Below, one piece after another: positions 12,590 through 43,157 of a stretch of DNA of 64,000 nt. How positions within the stretch are numbered: position 1 is the first letter of the stretch; each line of letters starts with the position of its first letter. The notes under the pieces were generated by a model. That model searched no databases and was not told where the DNA came from. It was given only the letters and a program-made list of their open reading frames with translations. The DNA lies in NCBI GenBank assembly GCA_965230295.1, contig OZ246001.1, positions 1,184,001 through 1,248,000 on the forward strand, written 5' to 3'. The translations under genes were made by a program, and so were the position numbers. The stretch comes from Marinicella sp. GTDB lineage: Bacteria; Pseudomonadota; Gammaproteobacteria; Xanthomonadales; Marinicellaceae.

Positions 12590-13405
12590 ATGAAAAAAAG
12601 GACAATCTTGATCATGGGCATTGCCATGAATGTCAGTGCTGTTGCTGATTCAGGCGATGCAAACTTACTGGGTGGACCAACACTCATGACGGAAGATCTG
12701 GTGATTGGAACAGGTGGTTTTGGCGGTGGTGTTGCCAATGATACTTTCATTGTAGAATCACAAACTGGCACCAATGTTTCGCTGTTGACAGGCGTGCCAT
12801 TTTGGGGATCCACGTATGACCCTGCGGGAAACAGGGTTCTTTATACCACCAGTGGTGGCACCACGGATGGTGCGGATTTGTTGGCCATAGATGTAGATAC
12901 CGGGGCGACCAGTTCATTAGGGACGATCACAGCCAATACATTCGAACTAAGGATTGATGGTCTTGCTATTTCAAGAGGCGTTTTATACGGTGTTCATCAA
13001 TTTGATGACGACAATGTTTCTGGTTTATACAGCATTGATCTTGGTACCTTTGAAGCCACGTTTATTGCCTCCATACCTTCTGGTAATGTGAGCGGTATTG
13101 ATGCAGACCCATCTACAGGAATCATCTATGCAGTCGATGACACTGCAGCACAAGTACAACAAATTGATCTGGATGGCACCATCACCAACTTGGTAGCCTA
13201 CCCAGCAGGTTATACAGATGTTGATGGCTTGGCTCTAGGTTATGGTGTGGCGTATTTAATTGCTGATGAGGCTCAAGATATAGTGCCTCTTGACCTCAGT
13301 ACTCTTACCTATGGAACCCCCATCACCACACCCTTTACCGTGGCAGATACATTTTCTGGCGGCGCGTTTGTGCATGATGTTATTTTTGCGAATGGATTTC
13401 AATAA
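12590..13405 (+). CDS. Secreted beta-propeller-like protein with C-terminal DVIFANGFQ tag
   Basis: Signal peptide; repeated beta blades (IDGLA, SGIDAD, VDGLA); terminal tag. Confidence 0.75.
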   Translation: MKKRTILIMGIAMNVSAVADSGDANLLGGPTLMTEDLVIGTGGFGGGVANDTFIVESQTGTNVSLLTGVPFWGSTYDPAGNRVLYTTSGGTTDGADLLAIDVDTGATSSLGTITANTFELRIDGLAISRGVLYGVHQFDDDNVSGLYSIDLGTFEATFIASIPSGNVSGIDADPSTGIIYAVDDTAAQVQQIDLDGTITNLVAYPAGYTDVDGLALGYGVAYLIADEAQDIVPLDLSTLTYGTPITTPFTVADTFSGGAFVHDVIFANGFQ

Positions 13406-13447
13406 TTGATAGATGACTCATCCAATAGGTTGAGTTATTCCTGATTT

Positions 13448-13494
13448 AACAGGCTGTTCCGGTGTGACTGACATCAATCGGGGCAGCCTGTTTT
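13448..13494 (+). terminator. Intrinsic terminator
   Basis: AACAGGCTGTTCCGG...TCGGGGCAGCCTGTTTT. Confidence 0.65.
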
Positions 13495-13594
13495 CATTGT
13501 GATAAGCAACCTTGTTGGCCACAAAAAAACTTCCATCAATCAAGTGACCCCTTCGACCATTAAAGGTTTTTAACCCGGTTGAAGAGACAATGAC

Positions 13595-14158
13595 TCAGTG
13601 ACCATACAAAACCGTTAGAGAACTAAGCGCCATCTGCGCTTCTCTACATTTTTTATCCAACTGTTGTTGATTGGCGACTTGGTGCTCTTGATCCAATTCT
13701 TCAGTCATTGTTAACAAGCCGGCAGTCAAATCTGCTCCGGACTGACTGAAATCCTGGTCACCTAATTGGGCTTCAATTCCATGCTGGTAATAATAGCGCC
13801 CCAAGGCAATGATGTTACTGGCACGGGATTCATAAGTTGATAATGCGGCAGCCACTTCTGGGCCACAATATTGAGCTGATACCCCATAAACTTGTGTGAA
13901 GGCATAACTTTTAGCGGCATCTGTTTTCGCCAACACCTGCATGGCTTTGAGTTTATCAGGGTCACTGATGCCTTGGGATTTATCTTTAAAAATTTGGTCC
14001 AGGGTGGCTTGCATGGCGGCTGTAAATTCAGCTTCATGTAACTGTTCAAAGGCCTTCAGATCTTCACTTTGGCAACCTTCGCAAGACTCAATGGGCCCTT
14101 GATTTGTGGCACAAGCCATGAGCATCAAAAAAAGTCCACAGACGATCAGTTTCATCAT
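13595..14158 (-). CDS. Hypothetical lipoprotein
   Basis: Lipobox LMAC at residue 16; CxxC near the N-terminus. Confidence 0.7.
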   Translation of the reverse strand: MMKLIVCGLFLMLMACATNQGPIESCEGCQSEDLKAFEQLHEAEFTAAMQATLDQIFKDKSQGISDPDKLKAMQVLAKTDAAKSYAFTQVYGVSAQYCGPEVAAALSTYESRASNIIALGRYYYQHGIEAQLGDQDFSQSGADLTAGLLTMTEELDQEHQVANQQQLDKKCREAQMALSSLTVLYGH

Positions 14159-14808
14159 TACACTGCCTGCATAACGATGTTATACAGTAAGTTGGACTTA
14201 TCACCTTTGACTGATTGGGCCACCATCATCTTTTGTTCATCTTTGGTTTTACTCTGTAACAGACGATCCACTTGGTTCAATTCATGATCCGGAAAATACA
14301 TTTGGGTGGTCACTTCATCATAGCCTGATTTGCTGACTTTAAAGTGGATGTGTGGTGGGCGGGTCCAGGAATCTGAGACAGGGTATGGTCCGGGAATGAT
14401 GGTTTTGAACTTAAATCCACCTTGTTCACCACTTTGCACGATGGCCCAGCCTTGAAAGTTTGCGTCTAAGGGTGCCGGGTTGGCGTCGTGCGGGTGACGG
14501 TAACGCCCAGCTGCATTGGCTTGCCAAATGTCCACAGTGGCACCTTCCACTGGATTGCCGTCTATGTCGAGAACTTGACCTTGGATGGTCACCACTTCGC
14601 CTAAAGCCTTTTCGTCTTTACCTGTTACTTGAGTTAAATCAAAATCCTGGTCTTTTTGCGGGGTTATCGGGTAAAACGGGCCTTCAATTTCATCCGGGGT
14701 GATGGCATTGGCAGCCAAAACATTGGGCGTGATGGCAGTAATGGCACCGCCCGCCAATCCCATGCGAACAAACGAACGTCGATCTTGGTTGGGTTTATCT
14801 GTAGACAT
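14158..14808 (-). CDS. Tat-exported intradiol ring-cleavage dioxygenase (protocatechuate 3,4-dioxygenase-like)
   Basis: DRRSFVR Tat motif; EGPFYP, WQANAAGRY, PGPYP, RPPHIHF, TTQMYF. Confidence 0.88.
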   Translation of the reverse strand: MSTDKPNQDRRSFVRMGLAGGAITAITPNVLAANAITPDEIEGPFYPITPQKDQDFDLTQVTGKDEKALGEVVTIQGQVLDIDGNPVEGATVDIWQANAAGRYRHPHDANPAPLDANFQGWAIVQSGEQGGFKFKTIIPGPYPVSDSWTRPPHIHFKVSKSGYDEVTTQMYFPDHELNQVDRLLQSKTKDEQKMMVAQSVKGDKSNLLYNIVMQAV

Positions 14809-14817
14809 ATATGTACC

Positions 14818-15549
14818 TCATTTTTCAGGGGGTTGCTCAAACCCATCAACAAAAATAAAATCTCCATTGGCGGTGTTAACAATCAGTTGATCAAATGCCA
14901 TGAATTCATTGTCATCGGTGTGGTTGTTGTTGGATATCACAACGATTTGTTCTACCGTTTGACCAAAAGGCACACCGCCCAGAGCAGAATAAATCAACTG
15001 ACCATTGATGAAATAATCGATTTCATTGGTTTGGGTCCTGGTTGCCACATACAGGGTGATATATTCACCGGTGGGATAATCGAAACCAGTGTCATAAAAA
15101 CCATTGACACCACCTGGTGAATCAAATACCAACAAATCACCGGTATTGGTGAATCGCAGGCGCCAAGTGATCAGGTTCTGAACCACCGATTGAGCCAACA
15201 AATCATAGGCTGCCCCATTCAAATCGCTGAAATACAGATCAACATATACCGAAGGAGACAGGTCAGATACTGCTGTATTGAATGTAGGACTGAATGCACC
15301 ACTTTGTGTTCCTGGTACCACTTGGCTGTCTCGACTGATGCGAGCATGTTGTGACCCAGAAGATGGCTGATTGGTATCCACCGTGGGTTGTTCTGGAATG
15401 TTGGGGAAATTGGACCAACCATTTTGGTCGACCAAGGGACCGGTTACAAAACCCTCTTCTGACTCAAAATCGATGAAATAAACGTCAGCTGATAATGCTG
15501 TCACGACAGTGAGCAAAACCAACAACGTGAATATTTTTAGCATGATCAA
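14818..15549 (-). CDS. Secreted jelly-roll-like protein with near-terminal DFIFVDGFE tag
   Basis: Signal peptide; mature start DVYFIDFES; tag followed by QPPEK. Confidence 0.72.
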   Translation of the reverse strand: MIMLKIFTLLVLLTVVTALSADVYFIDFESEEGFVTGPLVDQNGWSNFPNIPEQPTVDTNQPSSGSQHARISRDSQVVPGTQSGAFSPTFNTAVSDLSPSVYVDLYFSDLNGAAYDLLAQSVVQNLITWRLRFTNTGDLLVFDSPGGVNGFYDTGFDYPTGEYITLYVATRTQTNEIDYFINGQLIYSALGGVPFGQTVEQIVVISNNNHTDDNEFMAFDQLIVNTANGDFIFVDGFEQPPEK

Positions 15550-15633
15550 TCCTTATTTTGTGTTCACAGGCTTGGAATTGTACTGCAAAAAGCGTTATTT
15601 AACTGTTACCTGATTCACTGTTGTTACGATTTC

Positions 15634-19042: not shown

Positions 19043-21436
19043 ATGAAAAAATCAGTTTTACTGACCGTGTTGCTGTCACTCATGTGTGCCCCAAGCCTAT
19101 GGGCCATCGACACCAAACCATTGAGCAGTATAGATAAACTACAGTATCCAGTCATCCTGAGGATCTATTTTGATGAAACCAGTCAACTACAAACGTTGTC
19201 TGACAACAGCGATGTGTGGACCATCAACCCAAGCCAAAAATTTGCTGTGGTTTATGTCACTGACTCAACCAGCATGCAAGCCATCAACCAATTGGGCATG
19301 CCGATGCGCCCAGACCTACAGTTGATGAAGCAATACGAAGCCGATTTACGCCAAATTAACCAAGCCAAACAAGGTGGTGGCATACCAGGCTTTTCATGCT
19401 ATGGAACGGTGGCTGAAACTTTTCAACGCATGGATCAAATGGTTCTTGACCACCCTGATCTGGCTGAAATTGTTGACATTGGCGACAGCTGGGAAAAAAT
19501 TCAAAACGGTGCCCAAGGCGATGATTTAAAGATCATCAAAATAACCAATCAAAACACCAACGGTGATAAACCGGTGCTTTTCATGGCCTCCTCTATTCAT
19601 GCCAGAGAATACACCACAGCGGAATTGAACACACGATTCGCCGAATACCTGTTGGATAATTACGGTACTGATGCTGATGTCACATGGATCATTGATAACC
19701 ATGAAATTCATTTGTCTTTGATCACCAACCCGGATGGTCGTCACCGGGCTCAAACTGGCATCCTGTGGCGGAAAAACGCCAACAATAATTTTTGTGCAAA
19801 CTCCAATGATCGGGGTGTAGACTTGAACCGAAACTATCCATATGAATGGGGCATTGGTGGTTCTACTTCTGCATGCAGTGAAGTATTCATCGGACCCAGC
19901 AGTGGCTCTGAACCAGAAATCATGGCCCAAATGGATTACCTCAGAACCATATTTGATGACAACCGAGGGCCTGGTGCCAATGACCCTGCACCAGCAGACA
20001 CACCCGGCATATTCGTTGACATCCACAGTTTCAGTCAGCTGGTATTGTGGCCTTGGGGTTATACCAACAACAACACCCCCAATGACAATCAGCTACAAGC
20101 ACTCGGCAAGCGCACAGCGTTCTTCAACAATTACCGCCCTCAACCGGTGAATGACCTGGTTCTGACCGGTGGCGGGTCTATTGATGCCACTTATGGAGAG
20201 TTAGGCATGGCTTCATTGGCATTCGAACTGGGCACTGCATTCTTTCAGGATTGTGCCACATTTGAAGATCGCATCTTTCCAGATAACTTACAAGCCCTGC
20301 TGTATTTAGCCAGAGTGACCCAGGCACCTTATACACAGTCACTAGGACCTGACGTTGAAGACTTGTTGGTCATACCCAATGTCATCACATCAGACACCAG
20401 CATTCAAGTCACTGGTGTGGCTGATGATGACCGTTACAACCAGACCAACGGCGCCCAGTCTACCGACTCCATACAAAGTGTTACTGCCTACATCAATGAA
20501 TTACCCATCCATGCAGTCAGCGGCCAGTCCTTGAGTCCGGTTGATGGGGCTTTTAATGAAAGCCGCGAAGCATTCAGCGGCCTGATCAACACCAACGGCT
20601 TAGCACCAGGCAAAAACCTGCTCTATGTGCAAGCCAGTGACAACGCCCAAGGCGGTGGCACATTTGCCCAGTTTATCGATGTGGTTGAACCCCAAGATGT
20701 GGCTCAACTGTCCGGTACTGTACGCAATGCACTCACAGGAGAAACCATCGAGAATGCCTTATTAACCATCAACCAATCCCAAGCTTTGTCCAGTGCCAAC
20801 GGCAGCTATGTACAGTTTGTCCAACCCGGGACAGCGGACTTGTTGGTTTCAGCCGATGAATTCGCTGACTTTACTTTGTCAGGATTGAATCTGGCTGCCA
20901 ATACACAAACCACTCAAGACATCAGCCTACAACCGTTTTGCGATCTACTGAATGACGATGTCGAGTCAGGCAACACAGGCTGGCAAGCAGAAAGTCCATG
21001 GGCCATCAGTACCGATCAAAGCACCAGCCCCACACATGCCTGGACTGACAGTCCCGGTGGCGAATACAGCAACAACATCAACATCAGCCTGACCTCACCG
21101 GTCATCGAAATATCTGATGCCGATGCTGTGGAAGTCAGCTACATGAGCCTGTGTGACACCGAAGCCACTTTTGACTTTGGCTATTTAGAAGCCCAATTTG
21201 ACAATGGCACTTGGCAAGAAATCAACCGATGTGACAACCAACCTAACTGGCAACAAGCAACACATCAGCTGGCCTTACCTGGAGGTACCCAAAATCTCAG
21301 AATCCGTTTCCGCTTAGAATCCGATGGTTTTGTTACCCAAGATGGTTGGCATGTAGATGACATCGCCATCAAGGCCTCAGGTGCTGCTTGTGGTGATGTG
21401 TTGGATGACGTGATTTTTGAAGATGATTTCGAATAA
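19043..21436 (+). CDS. Secreted M14 zinc carboxypeptidase with carboxypeptidase-regulatory and jelly-roll domains and a C-terminal DVIFEDDFE tag
   Basis: HARE, NPDG, WRKN, GVDLNRNY, DIHSF and FEL motifs; signal peptide. Confidence 0.92.
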   Translation: MKKSVLLTVLLSLMCAPSLWAIDTKPLSSIDKLQYPVILRIYFDETSQLQTLSDNSDVWTINPSQKFAVVYVTDSTSMQAINQLGMPMRPDLQLMKQYEADLRQINQAKQGGGIPGFSCYGTVAETFQRMDQMVLDHPDLAEIVDIGDSWEKIQNGAQGDDLKIIKITNQNTNGDKPVLFMASSIHAREYTTAELNTRFAEYLLDNYGTDADVTWIIDNHEIHLSLITNPDGRHRAQTGILWRKNANNNFCANSNDRGVDLNRNYPYEWGIGGSTSACSEVFIGPSSGSEPEIMAQMDYLRTIFDDNRGPGANDPAPADTPGIFVDIHSFSQLVLWPWGYTNNNTPNDNQLQALGKRTAFFNNYRPQPVNDLVLTGGGSIDATYGELGMASLAFELGTAFFQDCATFEDRIFPDNLQALLYLARVTQAPYTQSLGPDVEDLLVIPNVITSDTSIQVTGVADDDRYNQTNGAQSTDSIQSVTAYINELPIHAVSGQSLSPVDGAFNESREAFSGLINTNGLAPGKNLLYVQASDNAQGGGTFAQFIDVVEPQDVAQLSGTVRNALTGETIENALLTINQSQALSSANGSYVQFVQPGTADLLVSADEFADFTLSGLNLAANTQTTQDISLQPFCDLLNDDVESGNTGWQAESPWAISTDQSTSPTHAWTDSPGGEYSNNINISLTSPVIEISDADAVEVSYMSLCDTEATFDFGYLEAQFDNGTWQEINRCDNQPNWQQATHQLALPGGTQNLRIRFRLESDGFVTQDGWHVDDIAIKASGAACGDVLDDVIFEDDFE

Positions 21437-30015: not shown

Positions 30016-30882
30016 TCAATCAAAACCAGTCGCAAAAATCACATCGGAGCCATAATAAATTTGATGGTTATTGGGTTCTGAAACAGTGATCAACTGGTTA
30101 AAATCAGCATTGAAAGTGAAACCCTCCACCTGATTCTGCGGCAAAATCAATTGCGCATACTGCTGCCCGGAAAGGTCCACATCAATGATCCTGTGTGCCA
30201 AATGAGACATCAACAACAATCGACCAGTCCCCTCATCGAAATAACAACTGGACAAATCAGCACCGGCGCCCAAAAGACCGCTGAGCTGATTGAAAGACAA
30301 AGTTTCCGAGACCACCAAAGAGCCATCAGCAAAGGTCACATCTTCGCTGTTCGCTGGCCTGTTGAATTGCAACACCTGCATTTGCGGGTCTTCGATACAA
30401 ACATAAAAGACCTGATTGAAAGGATCATAGGCCACCCCTTCTCCCGAGTCACCGCCTGCCGTGTTGGCGTATGTCAGGGTTTGGGTGTCGACTTGATCCA
30501 AACGGATGTTGTGTGTATTCATCGGCGATTGCACAATAATCACTGAACCTTCAGCCCCTCCTTCTTCAACCAACGCATATTCATAGAAGTTACCATTGGC
30601 TCCTATGAATGTAATGCCTTCACAGTCTCCACAGGCCAATGAGCCGCAAAACTGCTCAGTCAATTGGCTGTCATAGCGGCAATATTGGTTTTGATGCACA
30701 GTTATGTATTGATCAGCTATCCAGTTGTAAGTGATGCCTGATAAATTGGCCACTGATGACAAGGAAGCTGCGGATGTGGGGTTTTGATAATGACTTAATG
30801 GCAGGGGTGATACGTTAATACCACCAGCTTGCGACATTAAAACCACAAACATAACTGCAAAAAGGCAGGCGTTTTTTTCCAT
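30016..30882 (-). CDS. SdiA-regulated (YjiK-like) beta-propeller with C-terminal DVIFATGFD tag
   Basis: LSGITYN, DCEGIT, GEGVAYD, DLSS, QVEG, VSEPN; signal peptide. Confidence 0.8.
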   Translation of the reverse strand: MEKNACLFAVMFVVLMSQAGGINVSPLPLSHYQNPTSAASLSSVANLSGITYNWIADQYITVHQNQYCRYDSQLTEQFCGSLACGDCEGITFIGANGNFYEYALVEEGGAEGSVIIVQSPMNTHNIRLDQVDTQTLTYANTAGGDSGEGVAYDPFNQVFYVCIEDPQMQVLQFNRPANSEDVTFADGSLVVSETLSFNQLSGLLGAGADLSSCYFDEGTGRLLLMSHLAHRIIDVDLSGQQYAQLILPQNQVEGFTFNADFNQLITVSEPNNHQIYYGSDVIFATGFD

Positions 30883-31180: not shown

Positions 31181-32122
31181 ATGGAAGAGCTAAACAAACA
31201 AATGTTTGCACATATCGGGTTGTTTATTTTGACGCTGCTGCTCAGTTCTCCAACGGTTATTGCATCTACCGGAAACCCGACACCATTCTCGGACGAATTT
31301 GATGGTGCTGTTGACTTACTCAACAACAACACCAGTGGTTGGTCGGTTTTGGGCAGCAGCGTGATGGATGAACGAGCCACAACTGTCGAAATCAATGGTG
31401 GATTGTTAACCGTGATTCCTGAAGTGTTTGCCATGAATGCCTGGTTTGAGGATGAATACGGGCCATTGGTGTATCAGTTGGTCACCGGCAATTTTGCTGC
31501 TGTCATCAATTTGAGGGTCACACAAACCAACAACATCGACATGCCACCTGATTTGGGTTTCAATGCCGGTGGCTTTGTGATCAGAGACGCCAGCGGTACG
31601 CACAACAACGATGAAAACTGGTTGATGTATAACATGGGCGGGCAAGGCGCTGATGGCGTGACCTATGCCCGTGAAATGAAAAAAACCGTCAGCTCAGTTT
31701 CGAACCTTTACTTGACCGAACAAGTGGGATTGGAAGAGTATCTTCTGGCCTGTCGGGTGGGGGATGATTTTTATTTCTATTATTGGGCCGACGCCATCAA
31801 TGCATGGCGACAAGAAACTTATTACAACCAATTCGATGTCGATGGTACCGAAACAACCACATGGCGCAACTCAGGATCAGTGACCCCAGAAATCACACCG
31901 GCAGGCATTGGCCAAGCCAACCCCATGCATTTCAACCACCCGGCCATGCCTGCTGAGGTTCAGGTTGGTATCATGGGCCACACTTGGAGTAACGGAAATA
32001 ACGGGACACGAGCTGATTTTGACTTCATTCGATTTGCCCAATCACCGCCCCAATCGCAATCAGAATGTACCACTGCATTCAATAACATCAACGACTTGAT
32101 TTTTGCCGATGATTTTGAGTGA
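31181..32122 (+). CDS. Secreted ConA-like (DUF1349-like) protein with C-terminal DLIFADDFE tag
   Basis: Signal peptide; FSDEFDG start, GPLVYQLVTGNF, EVQVGIM, ADFDFIRF. Confidence 0.72.
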   Translation: MEELNKQMFAHIGLFILTLLLSSPTVIASTGNPTPFSDEFDGAVDLLNNNTSGWSVLGSSVMDERATTVEINGGLLTVIPEVFAMNAWFEDEYGPLVYQLVTGNFAAVINLRVTQTNNIDMPPDLGFNAGGFVIRDASGTHNNDENWLMYNMGGQGADGVTYAREMKKTVSSVSNLYLTEQVGLEEYLLACRVGDDFYFYYWADAINAWRQETYYNQFDVDGTETTTWRNSGSVTPEITPAGIGQANPMHFNHPAMPAEVQVGIMGHTWSNGNNGTRADFDFIRFAQSPPQSQSECTTAFNNINDLIFADDFE

Positions 32123-32987: not shown

Positions 32988-35900
32988 TTAATCTATGCCT
33001 TGATTGCGTTTAAACTTGGGCACCAGCAGCCACAATAAATAAGCCGCCCCTCCAACCAAGGCGGCGCTCAAGGGCATCACAGGGCTGGCTTTAAAATACG
33101 ACAATGAAAAGATCAATCCCAACAATCCTGTGGTGAATATTGGCAACAAAACCCGAGGCTTCATGGCTGAGGTTTTGAATGCAAATATCACCAACCAAAT
33201 CATAACCACACTGATCAGGCTGATCATCAAGCCCACCAGGTTGCCTTGTTCTGAGGCATAACGGATGGCGAATCCAGCCACTGCGTCTGACTGGTTGGCA
33301 TAGAGTTTTTCAAATCGATACAAAATACCTTGCTTGGGCACGGTCATGCGCAGGGGTTTACCCATTTGAATTGATCCATTCAAGTCATTGGAGCGATCAT
33401 TCATACCCATTTTATGTGGGTTGACCATGCGCTTGGCGCTGATCACATTCATGTTGGTGTCGACTGCCTGGTAATTGGGACCTTGAGGTAAATACACATC
33501 CCAAAAACTGTGTGTCACCACCATGTCTGGTATAGGCAGTTGGGCTTTGAGCGTGCCAAACAAACCCATTTTTGCAATCGGCACTGCATACACCACTTCA
33601 ACCGGAAAGCCAGTGGCTGAATTGAGCATCTTGATCAGAATATCCTGGCTCAAATCAGATTGGTTTTTGGCGTTGGCAGGTTTTTCCGCTTGACCATCAA
33701 CAAACACCGACCACACTTCGGCTTCTGCCGGTAAACTCAAACGCAAAAACTGCAACCTGGAATTGCGCACATCAAACCTCGCCGTGGTAACAGCCAGACC
33801 GTCATCGGTGACCAATGTTTGGTAATCAGCCGTTTCAATCGCAGCGACTTGGGTGGCCAATTCTTGGTGGCGGGTCATCTTCAAACTCAGTTGATGGGGA
33901 GAGTCGGCATTGACGTATTTGAAGGCCAACAAAATGGGGTTGGTGGTTTTCAACACCAGCTGCTGTGGCAATTCATTGATTTCCAAAGTCGACAACTGGG
34001 TCGTTTTGGCAGCTTGGATTTCTACCGCTGTCAAAGCTTCAACGGCAATGCGCCCATGTTGAACTTCCGCACCTGAGACTTGAATCGTGGGTACTGCCAG
34101 TTCGGACTGGCTGTCACTGAGGATGTATTCGTAGTTAACTTCCAATTGAAATTGTCCGGTCATTTCCTGGGTGAATTCCACTTCAATGGTTTGACCGTCT
34201 TCCTGACCTTCGACTTGGTGGTTTCGCAATGAAGGTCCGGTCACATTCAGCACATTGACACCTTTCGGGATGGATAAATTCAGATCAACCAAACTCCCTG
34301 ATTTCACATCAATTTGAATCCCAGCGCTGCCACGCATGGTCACTTCCCCCAATGAAACCAAGGTATCTACTTGGGCATCGTATTTGCCTTGCTTGCGGAT
34401 CGGTGCCATGGTGTTGACAGTCAACAAAGGCTGCGCACTGGTGTATTTAAAGGTGTGGGCAATGGTTTGGCTGATTTGGTTGCGGAAAAATGCCGGCAGC
34501 TGGTTTTCTCCCACTCGGGATACGCCTTGCTCCTTGATCGGTTTTAAAGTCAATTCATTACCCACCAACAAAGCCACAATGCCACGTTGTCGGTGCATGT
34601 TATTGGCCCGAATGATGGGCACTTTGATCGCTTGTGCCGCTTCTGGATCCGTTGACTGGCCTAACAGTTGCTCATATTCGACGTGTAATTGAAACTGGGA
34701 TTTGACTTTGCGGTCCAGATACACGTTGATGGTTTTTACAACCTCCCCTGCTTCTTCAGTCCAGTCAGAAATACCTGCCGTTTGAGCCTTGATGCGATTC
34801 ACCTGTGCCGCCACCGGCAGCTCAAAAGACAGCATGGATGTTTCACCTTGCGTGATTTCATAATCAATCAAACCACGGCCATACAACACCCCTTCTTCGG
34901 CTGAAATGGCATGGTAGATGTTGGCATTGGCCCTGACTTTTTCGAGGATGTCTTTGGGAATGGCGTCAATCCATGAAATGTTGACCGCTTCAGACAAGGG
35001 AATGAATGCCTGGCCGGTGGTGAAGTCATCATCGCTCTGGGTCAGCACCTGACTCTTGGGAGAAAAAGTGATGTCCTTCTTACCAGGCAGCTTCAGTTCA
35101 AATTCTGAAATGGCCACTTGTGGGATCGGGAATGACACCGCAGGCGGCCCTTGTTGTTGCACCACCGGGGTTTGAAATGTGACATCCAATTGGTGTTGGC
35201 CACGGCCCTGGATCATGACTTTAAAGTAACCTTCATCTAACAGCACCGTCGCGGGTTGTTGATCGATCAACACCTCATTGAGGATCACCGAATCCGGCAT
35301 GATGGGCAATTCCACCGATTCGCCAGTAAACAGTTCCACCTGATAATTGGCTGCAAAGGTAAAGGCTTGATCGATCAATTCACCTGAGTACTTGGCGCGA
35401 CTGACCACATAGGGTCGTTTGGTGGGAACCCGCCAAGTAATCAAGAATGCCGATGTGGTGGGTATGTCAGCAGTCAGGGTGTTGGTGTCATTTTGGCTGA
35501 CCATCAGCTGATCAGATGACGGGATAACGGCCATGTCTAATTCTTGGCCATTGAAATGCACGGTCAACTCGGTGGATGAAGCCCGTGGTATGGGCACCGG
35601 TAATACAAAACCTTGGTCAGATCGTTGGGCATCGATGGTGTAGTTGATCACCAAACGTGAAATACCTGATTGTTGGGTACTCCATGACATCCATTCAGCA
35701 TCTTGTACCAATTGAATGGCCTGCCCGTCAATCATCACCGATGAAATCGCAGCCCCATAGGGTAAAACGGGAATCAGCGTCCACTGGTCCTCGAACACCT
35801 CAATGCTGGCACTGATTTGGACTTCAGCTGTGGTGCGATCTTCCTGTTCGGTTAACACCACTGTGGCTGCTGACTGCCCGATGGCATAAGCCACCGGCGC

Positions 35901-36080
35901 CGAATCTTCGGGTTTCCTGGCATCTTCAATCAGCTTGATGTAGTTGGCCAAGGGAACCCTGACATCCCCTCCAGGAACAGTCAAGTCAGTGGTTGTTAGA
36001 GTTCCGTTGGCTGGGTTAATGGTTTTGGCTGAGGCCAAATTGGTCAGCATCAACAACAGGATTAAGCATAAATTTTTCAT
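32988..36080 (-). CDS. Large exported beta-rich repeat protein with C-terminal TM helices, function unknown
   Basis: GAGG RBS, signal peptide MKNLCLILLLMLTNLASA; ~170-aa internal repeats; three hydrophobic C-terminal segments. Confidence 0.75.
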   Translation of the reverse strand: MKNLCLILLLMLTNLASAKTINPANGTLTTTDLTVPGGDVRVPLANYIKLIEDARKPEDSAPVAYAIGQSAATVVLTEQEDRTTAEVQISASIEVFEDQWTLIPVLPYGAAISSVMIDGQAIQLVQDAEWMSWSTQQSGISRLVINYTIDAQRSDQGFVLPVPIPRASSTELTVHFNGQELDMAVIPSSDQLMVSQNDTNTLTADIPTTSAFLITWRVPTKRPYVVSRAKYSGELIDQAFTFAANYQVELFTGESVELPIMPDSVILNEVLIDQQPATVLLDEGYFKVMIQGRGQHQLDVTFQTPVVQQQGPPAVSFPIPQVAISEFELKLPGKKDITFSPKSQVLTQSDDDFTTGQAFIPLSEAVNISWIDAIPKDILEKVRANANIYHAISAEEGVLYGRGLIDYEITQGETSMLSFELPVAAQVNRIKAQTAGISDWTEEAGEVVKTINVYLDRKVKSQFQLHVEYEQLLGQSTDPEAAQAIKVPIIRANNMHRQRGIVALLVGNELTLKPIKEQGVSRVGENQLPAFFRNQISQTIAHTFKYTSAQPLLTVNTMAPIRKQGKYDAQVDTLVSLGEVTMRGSAGIQIDVKSGSLVDLNLSIPKGVNVLNVTGPSLRNHQVEGQEDGQTIEVEFTQEMTGQFQLEVNYEYILSDSQSELAVPTIQVSGAEVQHGRIAVEALTAVEIQAAKTTQLSTLEINELPQQLVLKTTNPILLAFKYVNADSPHQLSLKMTRHQELATQVAAIETADYQTLVTDDGLAVTTARFDVRNSRLQFLRLSLPAEAEVWSVFVDGQAEKPANAKNQSDLSQDILIKMLNSATGFPVEVVYAVPIAKMGLFGTLKAQLPIPDMVVTHSFWDVYLPQGPNYQAVDTNMNVISAKRMVNPHKMGMNDRSNDLNGSIQMGKPLRMTVPKQGILYRFEKLYANQSDAVAGFAIRYASEQGNLVGLMISLISVVMIWLVIFAFKTSAMKPRVLLPIFTTGLLGLIFSLSYFKASPVMPLSAALVGGAAYLLWLLVPKFKRNQGID

Positions 36081-36172
36081 GGTCTTGTCCTCATTCTTCA
36101 GGCGCAAGGGCGCCCAGTGGTTACAAAATAGGGTTTAACAAATGGTGTTCCGGGTTTGGTTAGGTCAGCCGA

Positions 36173-38977
36173 TCATGGGCTGTGGGTCAATAATCGCCGC
36201 CAACTGTTGACATTCATCGACGTCACAATCAATTGGTATTGCTCAGGGTTGATACTGGACTGTGTGGTCAACAATTTCGCATATTGTTTGATCACCTGTT
36301 CATCTTGCATGATTTCCCGGTCTTCTTTCCATGCTGGAATCTGTGTCCGCATGGCTTGTAACAAGCGCAACATGTTTGACAACTCCTGTATCGCCTCATC
36401 GTGTTTGTTCTCATGCAACAAGCTTGCTGCTTGTTTCATGGTTGTGGCGAAGCGGTGGGCCAATACATTTTTCATCACATTCAGCTCCAAGGGTGAAAGT
36501 TGATTGGATCCCATGGCCAAATCCAGGGTTTTGCTGCTGCTGGCGTTGCGCAAGTAGATCAGGTCTTTGTACTTGGCATTCACTTCCACAACCGGTACAG
36601 CCTGGCGGCTACCGCTGTGATTGACCAACACATCCAACAGCACCACATGAGTGTCGCCTGCAAAGAAGCTGGGGATCACCATTTGGATGCCGTCTTCGTC
36701 TTCTCCCCGATCAGCTTGGATGCCGAGGTTTTTGGCCATGCGTTGATCCAGACTTTGTTCGGCCTCCCTGACTTGTTGTGCCTGGGCATCATCCAGGGAA
36801 TAAGAACCCAGCACATCGACCAGTTGCACGCCTTCAGCCAAACGGATTTGTAAGCGCAAGGCCCTGGCTACGGCCCGGGATGCTGCCATCATTTCGGCCT
36901 GAATCACCCGCTCGGCATCATTGACACCGGTCATCACCCGGCTATGCCCTTGTCCTTGTAAGGCCAATCGTTCCAAAGGATCGCGTTGGAAAGCGTCACC
37001 CATGGCCAAGGTACTGAAGGTGATGCCTTCGGTGGCATGGCGATGCACCGCATGTTCCAATGGTTTGGTTACCAAGGCATTGCTGTTGGCAGAAACCAAC
37101 CAAACTGCACTGGAACCCAACACGGCATTGGGGTCGTCCTGGGTTTTCAGCCATTGGGTGGCCGCTTGGATGCTCTGCTCCAGGCTGACGTGGGTTTGTT
37201 CAACTTCAACTGGTTTGGTGAACAAATTATTCAACATCACTTGAATGGGGCCATGCCTGAAATCACTGGCTTGGATCAACTGCCCCCCACCTGCGCCGGT
37301 GAAGAACACCGACACTTGGTCAGAAGATCTTTTGTTTTTCAACAAGGCATCCAGCAGTGCTTTCAGTTCGTCTTGGACGGGTTGCTCACCCAGGTCCAAG
37401 ACCAAGGCCAAATTCAAGGCTGAACGGTGGCCCCCTTTTTGTTTGCCTGCTTGCAGACCCACTTGTAGCCGCATGCGGGTGGGGCCAGTGGCCTCCAGAC
37501 TGTTGCGATCACTGTTCACATACAAGGCCAGGGCCGAGTTACTGGGTGCATCAAAAGGCTGTGCGTTTTGTCTGACTGCAGGCAGTTCAAGCGAACTTGA
37601 TTGTGCCAATTGCGCTTGCAGCCAACGCATGTTCGAATCACCAGGAATGTAGGTGTTGGCCCAATAACCAGTGGCGGCTTTGAAACTCAGACCTTCGGTG
37701 TTGGCCAGCTGGTCCAGGTAGGTTTGAGCATCCCTTTGTCTGATTGACAGCGGCGCCTGTTCTACCGCAGCAGATTCTTCGGTCATTTCGACATCAGATC
37801 GTTTGATCCTGGAACCAGTGACTCTGATGCGCTCTGTCACCACATCGTCTTGCTCATCATCCCGACCTGCCCCTGCCAAGTTCGCTTGACGGTTGTCTTT
37901 GCGCAGGTAGCCTTTGTTGGCTTCGTCCAGGCTTTGACGCCGCGGTGCGGGGGCGTTGTTACTGACCAAACCATCTGCTGGCATGCTGTCTGCTTTCAGC
38001 TTGGCTTGCTCTTCTCTTTGTGCACGAAATTCTGTTTCTCTTTTAGAATCAACTTGAGGTGAAACTTTTCCAACTCGATCTACACCCAACTCTTCTAAAG
38101 ATCTGTTAACATGTATTTGGTCTTTTGAAATCGGACTTGAGAATTCATTTCCAGATATAACGGATTCATCCAAATCAACTGCATCAGGCTTAGACTCCTT
38201 CTTCTTTTCAGCCGCTTTGGCTTTGTCTTCAAACCAGGCTGCTTCCTGACTGGATTCGGCTTCTTCTATCATGGCACCAAGTTTCGGCTCGGTTCGAGTT
38301 AACATGTCCATATCCGGGGATTCACGCAACAGATCCGGCATGGGTGGCGCAGCCAAATGTGGTATGGCTTCAGTCGCAGGTTCGGGGGTAACAAAAGCAC
38401 CGGGCTCAGTCCCTTGCAGTTGCTTCAGTGTTTCACCTACTGAAGCTGACTCACTAGGTGCTGCCACATTCATGCTTTGAACCCGTCTGTTTCGTTCGAT
38501 GTTCACTTCATCAATGTCCACCAACTCTACGGTGATGTCATCGACGGCCTCACCTTCAGGGTCTATCCATGGGGTTTCTTTCGATGCCTCGGGTTTGGCC
38601 TGTTCAGTGGCAACCGTGACTTCACCGAAGTCACCCTGGAATTCAGAAATGGTGCCGTCGTACAACAAACCGACCACAGCCACCAGCACAAAAGAGGCGG
38701 CCAGGCCTGAGGCCCATTGTTGGTTGATTCTTTTGCGGTTGACCGGTTGGTTGTTGTTGGCTTCTTGTTGGACCGCAGCCAAAGTCCTGGCAAACACGTC
38801 ATCACTGACATCGTGTTCGGGCAGTTGGTCCACTTGCTGTTGTAGGCTCAATAAGTCTTCATAATAAGCCGCACATGCACTGCATTGCTTAAGGTGTTGT
38901 TCCAGAGCTGGATCCTGGATGGTCATCGACACATCCAGATCGAGCAGCTGCTGTCTGATGTGATCGCATTTATTCAT
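36173..38977 (-). CDS. Zinc-finger (zf-HC2) anti-sigma factor fused to a degenerate vWA/YfbK-like domain
   Basis: MNKCDHIR..HLKQCSAC; one TM helix; acidic linker; ALNLALVLD vWA strand; ERLALQGQG; start overlaps the ECF stop. Confidence 0.8.
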   Translation of the reverse strand: MNKCDHIRQQLLDLDVSMTIQDPALEQHLKQCSACAAYYEDLLSLQQQVDQLPEHDVSDDVFARTLAAVQQEANNNQPVNRKRINQQWASGLAASFVLVAVVGLLYDGTISEFQGDFGEVTVATEQAKPEASKETPWIDPEGEAVDDITVELVDIDEVNIERNRRVQSMNVAAPSESASVGETLKQLQGTEPGAFVTPEPATEAIPHLAAPPMPDLLRESPDMDMLTRTEPKLGAMIEEAESSQEAAWFEDKAKAAEKKKESKPDAVDLDESVISGNEFSSPISKDQIHVNRSLEELGVDRVGKVSPQVDSKRETEFRAQREEQAKLKADSMPADGLVSNNAPAPRRQSLDEANKGYLRKDNRQANLAGAGRDDEQDDVVTERIRVTGSRIKRSDVEMTEESAAVEQAPLSIRQRDAQTYLDQLANTEGLSFKAATGYWANTYIPGDSNMRWLQAQLAQSSSLELPAVRQNAQPFDAPSNSALALYVNSDRNSLEATGPTRMRLQVGLQAGKQKGGHRSALNLALVLDLGEQPVQDELKALLDALLKNKRSSDQVSVFFTGAGGGQLIQASDFRHGPIQVMLNNLFTKPVEVEQTHVSLEQSIQAATQWLKTQDDPNAVLGSSAVWLVSANSNALVTKPLEHAVHRHATEGITFSTLAMGDAFQRDPLERLALQGQGHSRVMTGVNDAERVIQAEMMAASRAVARALRLQIRLAEGVQLVDVLGSYSLDDAQAQQVREAEQSLDQRMAKNLGIQADRGEDEDGIQMVIPSFFAGDTHVVLLDVLVNHSGSRQAVPVVEVNAKYKDLIYLRNASSSKTLDLAMGSNQLSPLELNVMKNVLAHRFATTMKQAASLLHENKHDEAIQELSNMLRLLQAMRTQIPAWKEDREIMQDEQVIKQYAKLLTTQSSINPEQYQLIVTSMNVNSWRRLLTHSP

Positions 38978-39605
38978 GGTTGACTCCTGATGGACGCACT
39001 TGGGTTTCAGGCGCATTTTGTTGGGCCTGAAAAGCCGACAATAAAGTTTGTCGAGCACGTCTGAGTTGTGATTTGATGGTGTTGATGGGCAGCCCCAATG
39101 CGGCCCCCACTTCTTTGATTTTCATGCCCTTAACAACAGACAATGTAAAGGCTTCCGCTTGGGCTTGTGGCAGCTTGATTACAGCCTGTTCCAACCAGTT
39201 GATGGTCTCGTCCAATTGTGCTGATTTTTCAGGTGTGGGCTGCTCGTCTTCAATCGTCTCGGCATCTTCTATTGCATAGCCCTTCAGTTGCTTTTTTCGT
39301 TGGAAATCTCGCAATGTGTTGACTGCAATGGTGAAAATCCAGGGACCCAAGGGTCGATTGGGTTGGTAGGTATGAGCGGCTTTGTGGATTTTTAGAAAAA
39401 TCTCCTGAAACACATCGTCTCTTTGTTGTGACTCCAAGCCGTGACGGACCAAAAATGAGTAGAGTGGTTTGCGGTAGGCTTGCATCAGTTTAACAAAAGC
39501 CTGTTGATCACCCCGCAAATGAGCAGCCAGCCAGGTACGCTCTTCGAGATCCACCACTCGGGGTTCGGTTTTATGTTGGCTGGTTAGTTGCGGCATGGTT
39601 GGCAC
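38970..39605 (-). CDS. ECF RNA polymerase sigma factor
   Basis: GDQQAF, DDVFQEIFLKIH, WIFTIAVN, TIKSQLRRAR. Confidence 0.93.
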   Translation of the reverse strand: MPTMPQLTSQHKTEPRVVDLEERTWLAAHLRGDQQAFVKLMQAYRKPLYSFLVRHGLESQQRDDVFQEIFLKIHKAAHTYQPNRPLGPWIFTIAVNTLRDFQRKKQLKGYAIEDAETIEDEQPTPEKSAQLDETINWLEQAVIKLPQAQAEAFTLSVVKGMKIKEVGAALGLPINTIKSQLRRARQTLLSAFQAQQNAPETQVRPSGVNHE

Positions 39606-40280: not shown

Positions 40281-40382
40281 AAGTGACTAACCTCTGTGCT
40301 TGGTTGTTATTTTTCTGAATAAATCATTTACTTTCAACGCTGGTGAACTATGATATTCAGGATCAGACAATAAGGATATCAC

Positions 40383-40922: not shown

Positions 40923-41547
40923 TCTATTTTATAATACCAGCCAATCGATCGATGAAATCTACCCAGATCTTTTCTTACTGAGAAAATTCACATCCTTGGA
41001 ATCTTTATTGGACGACATCAAAAAAACAGTGTCCGCCGCCCCTTTCAGGTTCATGTACACACCAGGTGGTAAACGACTGAACATTTCCATGACCAACTGT
41101 GGTGATGTGGGTTGGATCAGCGAAGCCAGTGGATACCGTTATTCAGCATCAGACCCGACATCTGACCAACCTTGGCCTGAAATGCCAGCTTCATTCAAGT
41201 CTTTGGCCAAACAAGCTGCCAACTTGGCAGATTTTCCGGGGTTCGAACCCAATGCCTGCTTGATTAACCATTACAAAATGGGTCAAGAGTTAACCGCTCA
41301 TCAAGACAAAAACGAACCCGATCTGTCCCAACCCATCGTGTCTGTTTCCCTTGGCATGAGTGCCCGTTTTCAAATTTATGGTGATGCCAGAAACAACAAA
41401 CCGCAAGACATAGAACTGTATGACGGCGATGTGTTGGTTTGGGGTCGCACGGCGCGTTTGATCTACCATGGGGTGAAAACCAACCGCAGCCAACCACACC
41501 CTGTCTTGGGACCCCATCGGATTAACCTCACCTTGCGCAAGGTTTAA
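40915..41547 (+). CDS. alkB: DNA oxidative demethylase AlkB
   Basis: TPGG..SMTNCG, GYRYS, ACLINHY, HQD, VSLG, YHGV, RINLTLR; probable GTG start at 40915. Confidence 0.92.
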   Translation: MSDLFYNTSQSIDEIYPDLFLLRKFTSLESLLDDIKKTVSAAPFRFMYTPGGKRLNISMTNCGDVGWISEASGYRYSASDPTSDQPWPEMPASFKSLAKQAANLADFPGFEPNACLINHYKMGQELTAHQDKNEPDLSQPIVSVSLGMSARFQIYGDARNNKPQDIELYDGDVLVWGRTARLIYHGVKTNRSQPHPVLGPHRINLTLRKV

Positions 41548-41580
41548 CCGTCTATTTATCAAAATGCCCTAACCGCACAC

Positions 41581-41625
41581 TGAGCGGAGTCGAAGTGAGC
41601 GGAGTCGAAGTGAGCAGAGTCGAGA
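41581..41625 (+). repeat. 15-bp tandem repeat, three copies (REP-like half site)
   Basis: TGAGCGGAGTCGAAG x2 plus TGAGCAGAGTCGAGA. Confidence 0.85.
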
Positions 41626-41711
41626 TAAAACTAACCTTGAAATGAAAAAATCTTTGGCGCAATCTCTTGTTAGATTACGCATGTATGTATATACACTGGA
41701 CGAGAACCAAC

Positions 41712-43157
41712 ATGACACATAAATTTGGCCTGTTTTTTTTACTGTTAGTTATAAGCGTTGCATGGGCCGGACCTTCAATTTGGAATCTGGGAACCTCACC
41801 CACTTCAGAAGTATTCAATGGTATCGCATCGGCTGATGGTAATTTTATTATCGCGGTGGGTGAGAATGGCACCATTGTCCATTTCAAAGACGGTGACAGC
41901 GGCACACTGATACCTTCAGGCACCACCGAGGAGTTATATGATGTCTATGTTGCTTCCCCCAATATGGCTGTAGCTGCCGGAGAGGACATTGTATTGTTGT
42001 GGGATGGCATCCAATGGGACCCCATTCAAACTGGCAACACCGACACCATTTATACCGGCGCTTGGATTTCACCCGAACAAGACGTGGTGCTGTTTGAATC
42101 CTTGGGCCAGTTCAATGTGATATGCCCCTATTTACCTGATGAAACCAACCAGCCCTTTTGTCGCGCGTATTCACAACCCATGCTCACTGCTTGCGGTAAC
42201 AGCAACGACATCAAAATGTTGATGGCCAGCGGTGACATTCAACATGTGGATAACTTCTTAGGTGATTTAAGTAACGGACAACCTTTACATACCGAAGCTG
42301 TGCCTTTGTTTTTAACAGCCATTTGGGCACCACCTCTGGCCTGCCTGCCAGGCTCCATTGAGCCTGAAGAGCTGTTTGCCATCAGGAGTGGCAATGAATT
42401 TTGGCATTTTGATGGTGCTGAATGGTCCAACATGAATGCCAATGTGCCTTTCGGCCAAACCCTCACCTGGCTCAGCGGCACCAGTAACCGCAACATCATT
42501 GCCATTGGATTCAAAGACGATGGCATGGGTGGTAATGAAGGGGTGGTATGGATCTACGATGGGCAAAACTGGACTGAAGACTCCAACCTGCCTGCTGGCA
42601 CCCCAGGTTTGACGGATATCGTGGCACATATCAATTTGCCGGATTTAATTTTTGCGACAGGTTTTGAATCTGGAACGCTCAACAGGACGATAGACGACTC
42701 CAGGATAGACATATTGGCAGCAGCAGAAAATGGTCGATATATTTTTACCAATCAACTCTTCCCTCCGACACCCACTGACTTATCCATCGACAAGCGCTTG
42801 CTGACACCAGAACCCATCACCCAGGGACAACAAGTCATCTTTGAAATTGAGGCGCAAAATTTGGGCAGTGAAACCGCCACCAATGTACGCATGACTGATG
42901 CCTACAACCCCAATTTACAGTTGGTGACTGACAATTGTGGCATGACTCAATTCAATGTTTATGTGGGCTGGCGTTATCGTGAACTGAATCTCCCATCGAT
43001 GGATGCAGGTGAGGTATTTACTTGTACCATGGTGTTTGCGGCCGTTGGTGTACCTGGTGATAATTTATATAATTACGCCCAAATTGATGGTGTAGCCGAC
43101 AACAATTACAGCAATAACCGCAGCGATGTCAAAAATGTATTTATTCAAGCGCCATGA
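41712..43157 (+). CDS. Secreted beta-propeller protein with an internal DLIFATGFE tag and C-terminal DUF11 domain
   Basis: Signal peptide; AVGENGTIVHF, WDG.QW and HFDGAEW blades; DLSIDK..N.G...ATNV..NN DUF11 pattern. Confidence 0.78.
   Translation: MTHKFGLFFLLLVISVAWAGPSIWNLGTSPTSEVFNGIASADGNFIIAVGENGTIVHFKDGDSGTLIPSGTTEELYDVYVASPNMAVAAGEDIVLLWDGIQWDPIQTGNTDTIYTGAWISPEQDVVLFESLGQFNVICPYLPDETNQPFCRAYSQPMLTACGNSNDIKMLMASGDIQHVDNFLGDLSNGQPLHTEAVPLFLTAIWAPPLACLPGSIEPEELFAIRSGNEFWHFDGAEWSNMNANVPFGQTLTWLSGTSNRNIIAIGFKDDGMGGNEGVVWIYDGQNWTEDSNLPAGTPGLTDIVAHINLPDLIFATGFESGTLNRTIDDSRIDILAAAENGRYIFTNQLFPPTPTDLSIDKRLLTPEPITQGQQVIFEIEAQNLGSETATNVRMTDAYNPNLQLVTDNCGMTQFNVYVGWRYRELNLPSMDAGEVFTCTMVFAAVGVPGDNLYNYAQIDGVADNNYSNNRSDVKNVFIQAP

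Follow-up and report, generated by a model that had tools for sequence, protein, structure and literature searches.

Shared C-terminal tags have repeatedly led to new envelope machinery, as in the cases of the exosortases, rhombosortase and the type IX secretion system (T9SS). Here we describe a nine-residue tag with the consensus D-x-I-F-x-[DNS]-[GD]-F-[ED], carried by six exported proteins within a stretch of 64,000 nucleotides from Marinicella sp. (positions 1,184,001-1,248,000 of contig OZ246001.1, 4,008,074 bp, 44% G+C). In the following, this whole stretch is called the window and the source genome G000. The tag is found on about 4% of the genes and occurs order-wide in a major gammaproteobacterial group, Xanthomonadales, where Marinicella is placed by GTDB according to passages of PMC7691419. 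Very probably, it is a genuine sorting or docking signal.

Among the described systems, PEP-CTERM/exosortase and IPTL-CTERM/exosortase H come close: a short C-terminal signal is found on unrelated exported passengers, genomes are all-or-none, and the signals take the same slot. Unlike these signals, the tag has neither a transmembrane (TM) helix nor an Arg/Lys cluster, and the exosortase H (XrtH)-associated marker persists in tag-free genomes. The C-terminal domain (CTD) of T9SS substrates is a 70-100-residue immunoglobulin-like domain of Bacteroidota. Like the tag, it serves to sort many secreted hydrolases and adhesins from their C-terminus and does so without TM helix, but the tag is confined to nine codons, is unconserved upstream and is found in Gammaproteobacteria. 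In the case of GlyGly-CTERM/rhombosortase (VesB of Vibrio cholerae), the likeness lies in exoenzymes of the type II secretion system (T2SS) type that stay cell-associated (cf. PMC12889589). The passengers also overlap, for example in M36 peptidases and an ExeM/NucH nuclease. The GlyGly-CTERM signal, however, has a TM helix and is cut by an intramembrane protease, whereas the tag consists of nine soluble residues.

The tag in the window

A sequence-only reading of the window had reported six signal-peptide proteins with unrelated cores and one common motif, and the sites, N-termini and Pfam results all agree with it. The six motif sites were found at the following window positions and strands:

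12590..13405, plus strand: propeller-like exported protein, 271 residues, weak DUF4394 and SdiA-regulated matches; tag DVIFANGFQ-stop at 13376-13402
14818..15549, minus strand: exported protein of no known family, 243 residues; tag DFIFVDGFE followed by QPPEK, at 14836-14862
19043..21436, plus strand: M14 carboxypeptidase, 797 residues, with CarboxypepD_reg and MAM-like domains (Pfam); tag DVIFEDDFE-stop at 21407-21433
30016..30882, minus strand: SdiA-regulated (YjiK-like) exported protein, 288 residues (PF06977, E 2.5e-18); tag DVIFATGFD-stop at 30019-30045
31181..32122, plus strand: exported protein of no family, 313 residues; tag DLIFADDFE-stop at 32093-32119
41667..43157, plus strand: exported protein, 496 residues, with DUF11 (residues 371-488, E 9.7e-13); internal tag DLIFATGFE at 42642-42668, followed by SGTLN...

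According to Pfam, the cores are unrelated, in the order listed: weakly DUF4394/propeller-like, no family, Peptidase_M14, SdiA-regulated, no family and DUF11. All six N-termini are signal-peptide-like. At four of the six sites the tag is directly followed by the stop, and in the DUF11 protein it lies 162 residues ahead of it. Four further loose motif matches in the window include no strict match.

Genome-wide extent and conservation at the peptide level

Open reading frames (ORFs) of at least 100 residues were scanned with the regular expression D.[ILVM]F..[GDNSA]F[EDQN] in their final 25 residues. In G000, this gave 89 ORFs with the motif at their end versus only 9 matches in the remaining 1,287,222 ORF residues, so that the motif is indeed commoner at C-termini than elsewhere. 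A position matrix from 109 tag instances was then applied to the final 20 residues of 3087 approximate genes. At a threshold of at least 10 bits it recovered 137 genes; had matches been as frequent there as in 20-residue windows drawn at random from protein interiors, 0.2 would have been expected. At the DNA level, the strict pattern (motif plus stop) gave 46 matches, and the reversed pattern used as control gave 0. The large client set that had been claimed from the window thus amounts to about 137 tagged proteins.

Peptide and codon logos were based on 111 instances of the regular expression, with Phe4 and Phe8 fixed by the search definition. Asp1 was found in 86 instances, Ile3 in 95 and D, N or S at position 6 in 101. 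Gly (66) and Asp (24) prevailed at position 7, Glu (63) and Asp (38) at position 9. The stop follows directly in 66 of the 111, and the other 45 carry 1-7 extra residues, such as the QPPEK of the 243-residue window protein. Information content is at background on either side of the nine codons, and third codon positions are mostly free. A repeated DNA element that encodes the peptide was ruled out: at most tag positions the third codon position carries 0.1-0.35 bits, the flanks are unconserved and all three stops are used. Free third positions and unconserved flanking DNA therefore indicate selection on the peptide and not on a DNA element. Since conservation is limited to nine codons, without TM helix or basic tail, the earlier statements hold: the tag does not resemble signals of the sortase type, and a T9SS CTD is far longer. 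Nor does it correspond to the outer-membrane β-signal of the β-barrel assembly machinery, which has a terminal Phe or Trp; the motif ends mostly in Glu or Asp and the passengers are soluble (enzymes and adhesins).

About nine copies in G000 are not C-terminal and stand either just behind the signal peptide or ahead of an extra C-terminal domain, the DUF11 protein of the window being an example of the latter. In a 2340-residue exported protein (G000 1551084-1558106), DLIFATGFE directly follows the signal peptide and is not C-terminal; further N-terminal copies were seen at G000 461395-462213 and 3210889-3213927. PFIFKSSFD at residue 46 of the protein at G000 2184592-2185434 (17.2 bits), with an N-terminus that is not signal-peptide-like, appears to be a chance match and to mark the false-positive level outside C-termini. 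A 110-residue ORF at G000 982463-982795 has an HEFGH metalloprotease motif and ends in DLIFESGFE-stop. The next ORF, with a signal peptide and a TM-type tail, overlaps its end with its own start, and the 110-residue ORF may be a truncated or rearranged protease gene.

The position of the tag raises the question of whether it could be the recognition or cleavage site of a sortase-like transpeptidase or processing protease, leading to covalent attachment of the passenger to a glycan or lipid of the surface, or to removal of the extension. Residues past the motif are variable and dispensable, as in a leaving group, internal copies lie ahead of removable C-terminal domains, and the slot is common to exosortase-type signals. 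Removal of the T9SS CTD and attachment by PorU provide a precedent without TM anchor. The leaving group, however, would comprise zero to two residues for most tags, and a membrane enzyme would have to act on substrates that no TM segment keeps in place. Copies right behind the signal peptide would moreover be senseless as attachment sites, and no candidate cleavage enzyme was found. Taken together, we consider a cleavage site highly unlikely.

The sequence-only reading had allowed that the motif might already be catalogued, which was not borne out. No NCBIfam or Pfam model matched the tails of the six window proteins, nor 29-40-residue tail fragments at E≤10, and a full-text literature search found no published description of the motif. 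The tag is therefore new to Pfam, NCBIfam and the literature searched.

Export status and passengers

Signal peptides were called with a heuristic of our own and not with SignalP; it flagged 41% of the untagged genes in its first version and 22% in the refined one. With this heuristic, a signal peptide without TM segment was found in 113 of 137 tagged versus 659 of 2950 untagged genes, so that the proposed link between motif and export was recovered at the proteome level. Two tagged proteins have clear twin-arginine (Tat) leaders and one has a lipoprotein-like N-terminus. As Sec, lipoprotein and Tat leaders all occur among the tagged proteins, any reading of the tag must therefore follow export, by whichever route the inner membrane is crossed.

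Of the 109 tagged proteins compared with NCBIfam, 10 were assigned to choice-of-anchor Q, 3 to choice-of-anchor J and 1 to choice-of-anchor I. Seven matched the myxosortase-dependent M36 model, five of which also matched the rhombosortase-dependent and two the T9SS-dependent model. In addition, there were 13 XAC2610-related proteins, 7 PARCEL-repeat proteins and single matches to ExeM/NucH nuclease, spondin-domain protein, the NF038122 metalloprotease and DNRLRE. The names given by NCBIfam to the choice-of-anchor families and to the sortase-dependent M36 families indicate that members elsewhere bear known C-terminal sorting signals. With proteases, nucleases, β-helix and FG-GAP/VCBS proteins among them, the passengers are typical of type II secretion or surface cargo.

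No recurrent gene resembling machinery was found among the neighbours of tagged genes in G000. By eye, the recurrent neighbours were a kinase-like protein of about 900 residues (8 copies) and an extracytoplasmic function (ECF)-sigma-like protein of about 190 residues (5 copies). These form pairs, e.g. at G000 1157202-1160583, 1522272-1525769, 2520369-2523807 and 3244198-3247427, and are probably dedicated regulators of the tagged secretome. A 480-residue family also recurs beside tagged genes.

Phyletic distribution and lineage variants

The tag is spread across most of the GTDB order Xanthomonadales in lineage-specific forms, while about 540 Pseudomonadota genomes from elsewhere did not rise above background. 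The strict pattern gave 11-46 matches in each of 12 congeners (reversed pattern: 0) and at most 1 match in any of 298 Gammaproteobacteria of other orders. For a comparison independent of position, the pattern IFx[DN]GFE was used on a sample of 81 Xanthomonadales genomes (families and genera are labelled f and g, genomes G). It was present in 57 of the 81 and reached no more than 2 matches in each of 246 Pseudomonadota genomes outside the order. A count of 0 was found in family f2 (present in 0 of 9), in four f12 genomes and in several of f7 and f8. The DNA patterns demanded Ile-Phe or Gly; groups with variant tags, f6 and g7, therefore also scored a count of 0.

Several types of variants could be identified. 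In f5 and f11, 26 of 30 sites lie 0-11 residues from the stop, often as IFADGFE followed by GP, AP, NP or SP; two are just behind the signal peptide and two are internal. G017 (f6) has an LFxDGFE form, with LFSNGFE-stop, LFSDGFESP-stop and similar endings at five of six loci. In the case of G068 (g7), a six-frame search of 800 kb with F.[DN][RG]F[ED] gave 22 matches, of which 16 lie in long ORFs and no more than 12 residues from the stop. All 16 read FxDRFE, i.e. the conserved Gly is replaced by Arg.

Outside the phylum, some Acidobacteriota have an 18-residue long form, FxDGFESGDTSAWSxTVP. Two Acidobacteriota metagenome-assembled genomes (MAGs), reached via orthologues of the M14 protein, gave 46 and 80 Fx[DN]GFE matches (control 0), and their long-form proteins typically end exactly 12 residues past GFE. 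Among 121 Acidobacteriota genomes, three hold 39-81 copies of the long form and the rest 0-3. Altogether, genomes with either dozens of tags or none behave as expected of a signal that depends on dedicated partners.

Exchange of C-terminal elements among homologues

Homologues of the 271-residue window protein have a common core ending in ...TSPFT.ADTFSG.A and diverge beyond it. Among 48 of them, 6 have the short tag and 11 a long tag (IFSDGFESGDTxAWSSTVP). An IPTL-like motif with TM helix and Arg cluster (RR) is found in 12 and a PEP-CTERM-like ending in 4 (one so named by its source), while 9 have other TM tails and 6 nothing or a fragment. In the same slot, the homologues P0065 and P0107 end in ...VPVELQSFSID and ...VPVGLQSLSVE, which may be another recurrent ending.

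In the case of the 313-residue protein, the tag is at the end in 45 of the 47 closest homologues (P0001-P0047), the other two being fragments without C-terminus. Nine homologues with 44-53% identity stop just ahead of the tag position, and two with 41-42% have a TM helix and basic tail. The SdiA-regulated protein keeps the tag in all 27 database homologues (57-100% identity), and the linker preceding it is variable. Orthologues of the M14 protein with 65-70% identity occur in Marinicella meishanensis and M. sediminis, which assigns G000 to Marinicella. At the M14 C-terminus, the short tag was seen in Marinicella species and the long form in both of the Acidobacteriota MAGs; a dockerin-like tail takes its place in two MAGs of Gammaproteobacteria. 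The M14 tail of L005 is a type I dockerin (PDB 2y3n_B, E 1.4e-5).

Such slot swaps support a sorting or docking role and are the strongest evidence for it.

Probable origin of the motif in a jelly-roll domain

A profile of 13 long-form tails was run at E≤1e-3 against the cluster representatives of a library of 1.84 billion proteins and matched 6415 of them. Among the best 150 of the 6415, 84 were single-copy, 64 had 2-6 copies and 2 had no pattern match. In 63 of the 84 single-copy matches the protein ends exactly 5 residues past the Trp, i.e. the motif is a stand-alone C-terminal tag. Copies in multi-copy matches are mostly spaced by about 190-300 residues, and this regular spacing implies that the motif opens a repeated domain. 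Links of this domain to named families are weak: CBM_4_9 starts over the motif at E 0.05-0.26, and Polysacc_lyase matched at E 3.2e-5, below the cut-off. A PDB search with the long-form tail gave non-significant matches only (a SusD homologue at E 0.27 and an SWD3 WD40 blade at E 1.1). The repeated unit looks like a ConA/CBM-like jelly roll, to the first strand of which the tag corresponds. Giant metagenomic proteins, namely P0138 (5213 residues), P0286 (5324 residues), P0142 and P0143, hold 3-6 copies of the long motif at a regular spacing of 284-389 residues. In these proteins, the presumed jelly-roll domain from whose first strand the tag arose is repeated in tandem.

The presence of the motif at the start of a 190-300-residue repeated domain in 64 of the best 150 matches also allows another reading, since truncation could leave it behind: the tag would be a structural leftover or cap that plays no part in sorting or docking, be it the strand that opened a jelly-roll domain since lost or the end of a linker. 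Many of the observations above go against this. The motif is found on unrelated folds, its end position is fixed in both the short and the long form, and it is kept in the SdiA-regulated homologues while the linker varies. Enrichment at C-termini is at least 100-fold, and the tag alternates with known sorting signals in one slot. A leftover is in our view the least probable of the explanations considered.

A candidate catcher protein and its co-distribution with the tag

When 105 units of the jelly-roll domain were compared with all ORFs of G000, there was one clear match, which was obtained with 29 units (best E 2.5e-16):

G000 1802183-1802929 (outside the window), minus strand: g1419, the candidate catcher, 248 residues, with signal peptide

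The gene is single copy in G000. Its mature start, QCDNTNGAAWGQ, aligns with ...SGNFSAWSS... of complete units. As the alignment starts at the residue after GFE, the catcher corresponds to the domain without the strand that the tag represents. Its C-terminal end reads ...YFLDEFESRRQTFIGGSCGP. No Pfam or NCBIfam family matched, and the protein cluster carries no name.

Full-length orthologues were found in 18 genomes of the order sample. All 18 have a signal peptide, then Cys, 3-10 residues and Trp, and IFxDGFE is in none of them; they cover 17 of the 21 genomes with at least 5 strict matches. A second subtype comprises 15 sequenced homologues (f4, f7, f9, f11 and genus g10) with the same N-terminus, e.g. 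...ACAI-SAWSS.... These 15, half of the sequenced homologues, have a C-terminal type I dockerin (PDB profile search: 1daq_A, E 1.7e-5; 2mte_A, E 1.8e-5). Weaker matches similar to this subtype also occur in f6.

Catchers were searched for with a narrower profile and then, on selected genomes, with a broader profile of both subtypes. The broader profile found the catcher in f5 (G016, E 8.6e-54; G049, E 4.8e-57) and in f8 (G019, E 1.5e-43; G051, E 6.3e-23). At E≤0.1 it found none in the motif-free G046, G089, G035, G060 and G077; G060, with neither tags nor catcher, is a congener of G051, which has both. Over the 81 genomes, the distribution of catcher and IFx[DN]GFE was:

catcher found, motif present: 49 genomes
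catcher found, motif count 0: 6 genomes (G017 and G068, the two that were examined, carry variant tags)
catcher not found, motif present: 8 genomes (seven by the narrower profile only)
catcher not found, motif count 0: 18 genomes

In genus g7, with Gly replaced by Arg in the tags, the catchers read [D/G/S]-N-W and not S-A-W, a possible co-variation of tag and catcher. By sequence comparison, the catcher is thus a domain minus the tag strand that co-occurs with the tags, as would be the case for a split-domain pair. As reader of the tag it is a serious candidate, though we would not yet call it a probable one.

The catcher locus in G000 holds five sulfotransferase genes, a gene for an AT3-SGNH acyltransferase and two weak glycosyltransferase matches, and this neighbourhood hints at a link to surface glycan. 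Glycans also figure in another possible explanation, namely a sticky peptide that needs no reader: two Phe and acidic residues in a tight hairpin could bind glycan, lipopolysaccharide with divalent cations, or the cell walls of prey. Two invariant Phe (i, i+4) around a [DN]-G turn with acidic flanks fit such a peptide, as does the weak resemblance of the parent domain to jelly rolls of the CBM_4_9 and polysaccharide-lyase types. Proteolytic bacteria belong to the order, and according to parts of PMC7691419 Gram-positive cells are the prey of Wenzhouxiangella AB-CW3. Nine residues are, however, very short for specific glycan binding. All-or-none genomes, co-loss with the catcher and the change of Gly to Arg in one genus would remain unexplained, and we regard a sticky peptide as improbable.

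Type II secretion and exosortase H markers

The sequence-only reading had proposed to profile motif-rich against motif-free genomes for transporter or scaffold genes. In a comparison of this kind the secreted catcher family was co-distributed with the tag; markers of the T2SS and of XrtH were not specific. This bears on a view in which the tag is a genuine sorting or secretion signal read by a T2SS component or another envelope protein, with the catcher being an exoprotein typical of the lineage. Tag statistics, slot swaps and the all-or-none pattern fit this view equally. G000 has two T2SS loci, one with a PDZ-bearing GspC and one Xps-like beside the exosortase H-associated membrane protein, and the latter cluster is found in 56 of the 57 motif-bearing genomes of the order sample.

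Three markers were tried and rejected. The g0680 family (12 paralogues, beside the Xps-like T2SS) is in all 57 motif-bearing genomes but also in 12 of the 24 with count 0; it was not found in the two Acidobacteriota MAGs, where XrtH_assoc-like matches are weak. XrtH_assoc is in 56 of 57 but likewise in 12 of 24, and in the Acidobacteriota sample XrtH_assoc-like matches were seen in 2 of the 3 tag-rich and 3 of the 118 other genomes. The GspC PDZ domain has a poor phyletic fit: the first GspC (GspC#1) gave no match in 9 motif-bearing genomes, yet 6 genomes with count 0 had one.

The T2SS-linked markers thus persist in 12 genomes with motif count 0, including G089, G060 and G077, which retain the XrtH-associated/T2SS cluster with neither tags nor catcher. 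No recurrent neighbour of the tagged genes looks like machinery, and it would stay unexplained why the tag is the very strand missing from a co-distributed protein. A reader other than the catcher therefore seems to us rather unlikely, though less so than the explanations by cleavage, stickiness or leftover.

An exosortase H gene (TIGR04177) lies at G000 2414702-2415169 (E 1.3e-47, above the cut-off). Six exported proteins of G000 end in a (V/I)P(V/I)-type motif, a TM helix and a basic tail, resembling IPTL-CTERM:

G000 3056-3868: TM-type tail
G000 820214-821107: TM-type tail
G000 982792-983415: TM-type tail
G000 2285626-2286402: TM-type tail
G000 2778439-2783760: TM-type tail
G000 3946541-3948502: TM-type tail

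The only genome match of TIGR04174 (27 positions) reached 15.2 bits versus a cut-off of 20.5 and lies on a TM-tailed protein, not on the tag. Exosortase H and NF041730, the XrtH-associated membrane protein, more plausibly serve these six tails than the tag.

Discussion

The sorting inference drawn from the window had two parts. The sorting or docking role is supported by the slot swaps and by genomes with dozens of tags or none, and for the machinery that would read the tag there is now a candidate only, the catcher.

Two kinds of precedents exist for the mechanism that we propose. In chaperone-usher pili and in engineered split domains such as SpyTag/SpyCatcher, an incomplete β-sandwich is completed in trans by a strand of another polypeptide. 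In chaperone-usher pili the cargo is incomplete and the chaperone donates, whereas here the strand would come from about 137 cargos and be taken up by a single protein. No isopeptide chemistry is implied for the tag, and the likeness to these systems would be functional only. The second precedent is dockerin-cohesin of cellulosomes, where secreted enzymes of diverse kinds bear a C-terminal module that fits into a partner. A dockerin, however, is a duplicated, Ca-binding, self-folding module of about 60-70 residues; the tag has nine and would be one strand of the fold of its partner. The tag is not a type I dockerin, as the duplicated D-x-N-x-D-G-x-V-N-x-x-D segment is lacking. True dockerins were recognised on L005 and on catcher homologues, so that the test was able to detect them.

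Along these lines, tagged proteins would cross the inner membrane by Sec, as lipoproteins or by Tat before the tag is read, and export over the outer membrane would most likely proceed via one of the two type II systems. The tag, as a detached first β-strand of a ConA/CBM-like jelly-roll domain, would dock by strand complementation and supply the missing edge strand of the single-copy secreted catcher. The C-terminal Glu of the tag would then come to lie beside the N-terminal Cys of the catcher. The catcher would act as an adaptor that collects tagged exoproteins into a cell-associated assembly, similar to dockerin-cohesin. In the case of Wenzhouxiangella AB-CW3, parts of PMC7691419 report no secreted protease activity in the culture medium, and the authors there assume outer-membrane-anchored (cell-anchored) proteases.

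In its widest form, which we put forward tentatively, Xanthomonadales outside the Xanthomonadaceae-like f2 would run a cellulosome-like plug-in exoproteome. More than 100 strand-tagged enzymes per cell would be held at the surface by trans complementation of a single strand-deficient catcher, fused to a dockerin in the second subtype. Other phyla, i.e. some Acidobacteriota and thousands of metagenomic clusters, would use the 18-residue version with another partner.

Several points weigh against this proposal. Firstly, strand-complementation binding and surface retention are predictions from comparing sequences. Secondly, the narrower profile found no catcher in the motif-bearing G028, G038, G039, G048, G066, G078, G082 and G083; G028 was negative with the broader profile as well, and a completeness of 100% is given for G038 and G048. 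Kinship among the genomes moreover limits their independence and leaves few contrasts, namely f2, part of f12 and part of f8 including one within-genus pair. Thirdly, one catcher gene for about 137 clients would call for a very high abundance of the catcher, or else for a catalytic or transient mode of action. The long form of Acidobacteriota includes the Trp strand and would need a different partner or split point. A few tags are internal or behind the signal peptide, so that a free C-terminus is not essential, although this fits docking. Lastly, when 1.5 kb on either side of the catcher gene was compared in 17 other genomes, only 3 had the sulfotransferase/acyltransferase neighbourhood.

Further genes of the window and of the secretion locus

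Between the tagged window genes, three further ORFs lie on the minus strand at 32988-39605:

38970-39605, minus strand: ECF-sigma-like ORF
36173-39058, minus strand: 961-residue ORF with an anti-sigma-like N-terminus
32988-36107, minus strand: 1039-residue exported protein with a C-terminal TM region

Locus L107 (G000 853,000-869,000), a conserved supercluster that lies outside the window, holds NF041730 (868007-868615, E 4.5e-48) together with an Xps-ordered T2SS operon (E, F, G-M, an N-like gene and D), a small lipoprotein, a 473-residue secreted protein of no family and a peptidyl-prolyl isomerase. By eye, it also holds Wzm/Wzt-transporter-like and glycosyltransferase-like genes. The end markers of L107 are 12-13 kb apart in every genome of the order checked by eye and are absent from f2 and three f12 genomes. 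A secreted family of 470-490 residues (G000 855496-856917) has 11 paralogues, e.g. at 2432853-2436953 and 494696-497414. Its N-terminal part reads ...GEVLIYPYYTVNNG..., and Pfam and NCBIfam gave no match. A genome has at most 12 matches to the family. Many of the copies are arrayed in tandem, and three adjoin tagged genes.

Implications

Recognition of the tag gives better localisation prediction for thousands of 'hypothetical' proteins, and the all-or-none distribution together with the lineage variants (Gly to Arg in one genus) makes the question of its reader directly testable. If strand complementation holds true, tag and catcher would be a natural nine-residue pair for surface display and protein assembly. 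The pair would then also amount to docking by a split domain as it occurs in nature, and the tag would stand for a new class of sorting signals. For the organisms themselves, it would explain how proteolytic, partly predatory bacteria of marine and soda-lake habitats, such as Marinicella and Wenzhouxiangella, keep their hydrolases on the cell.

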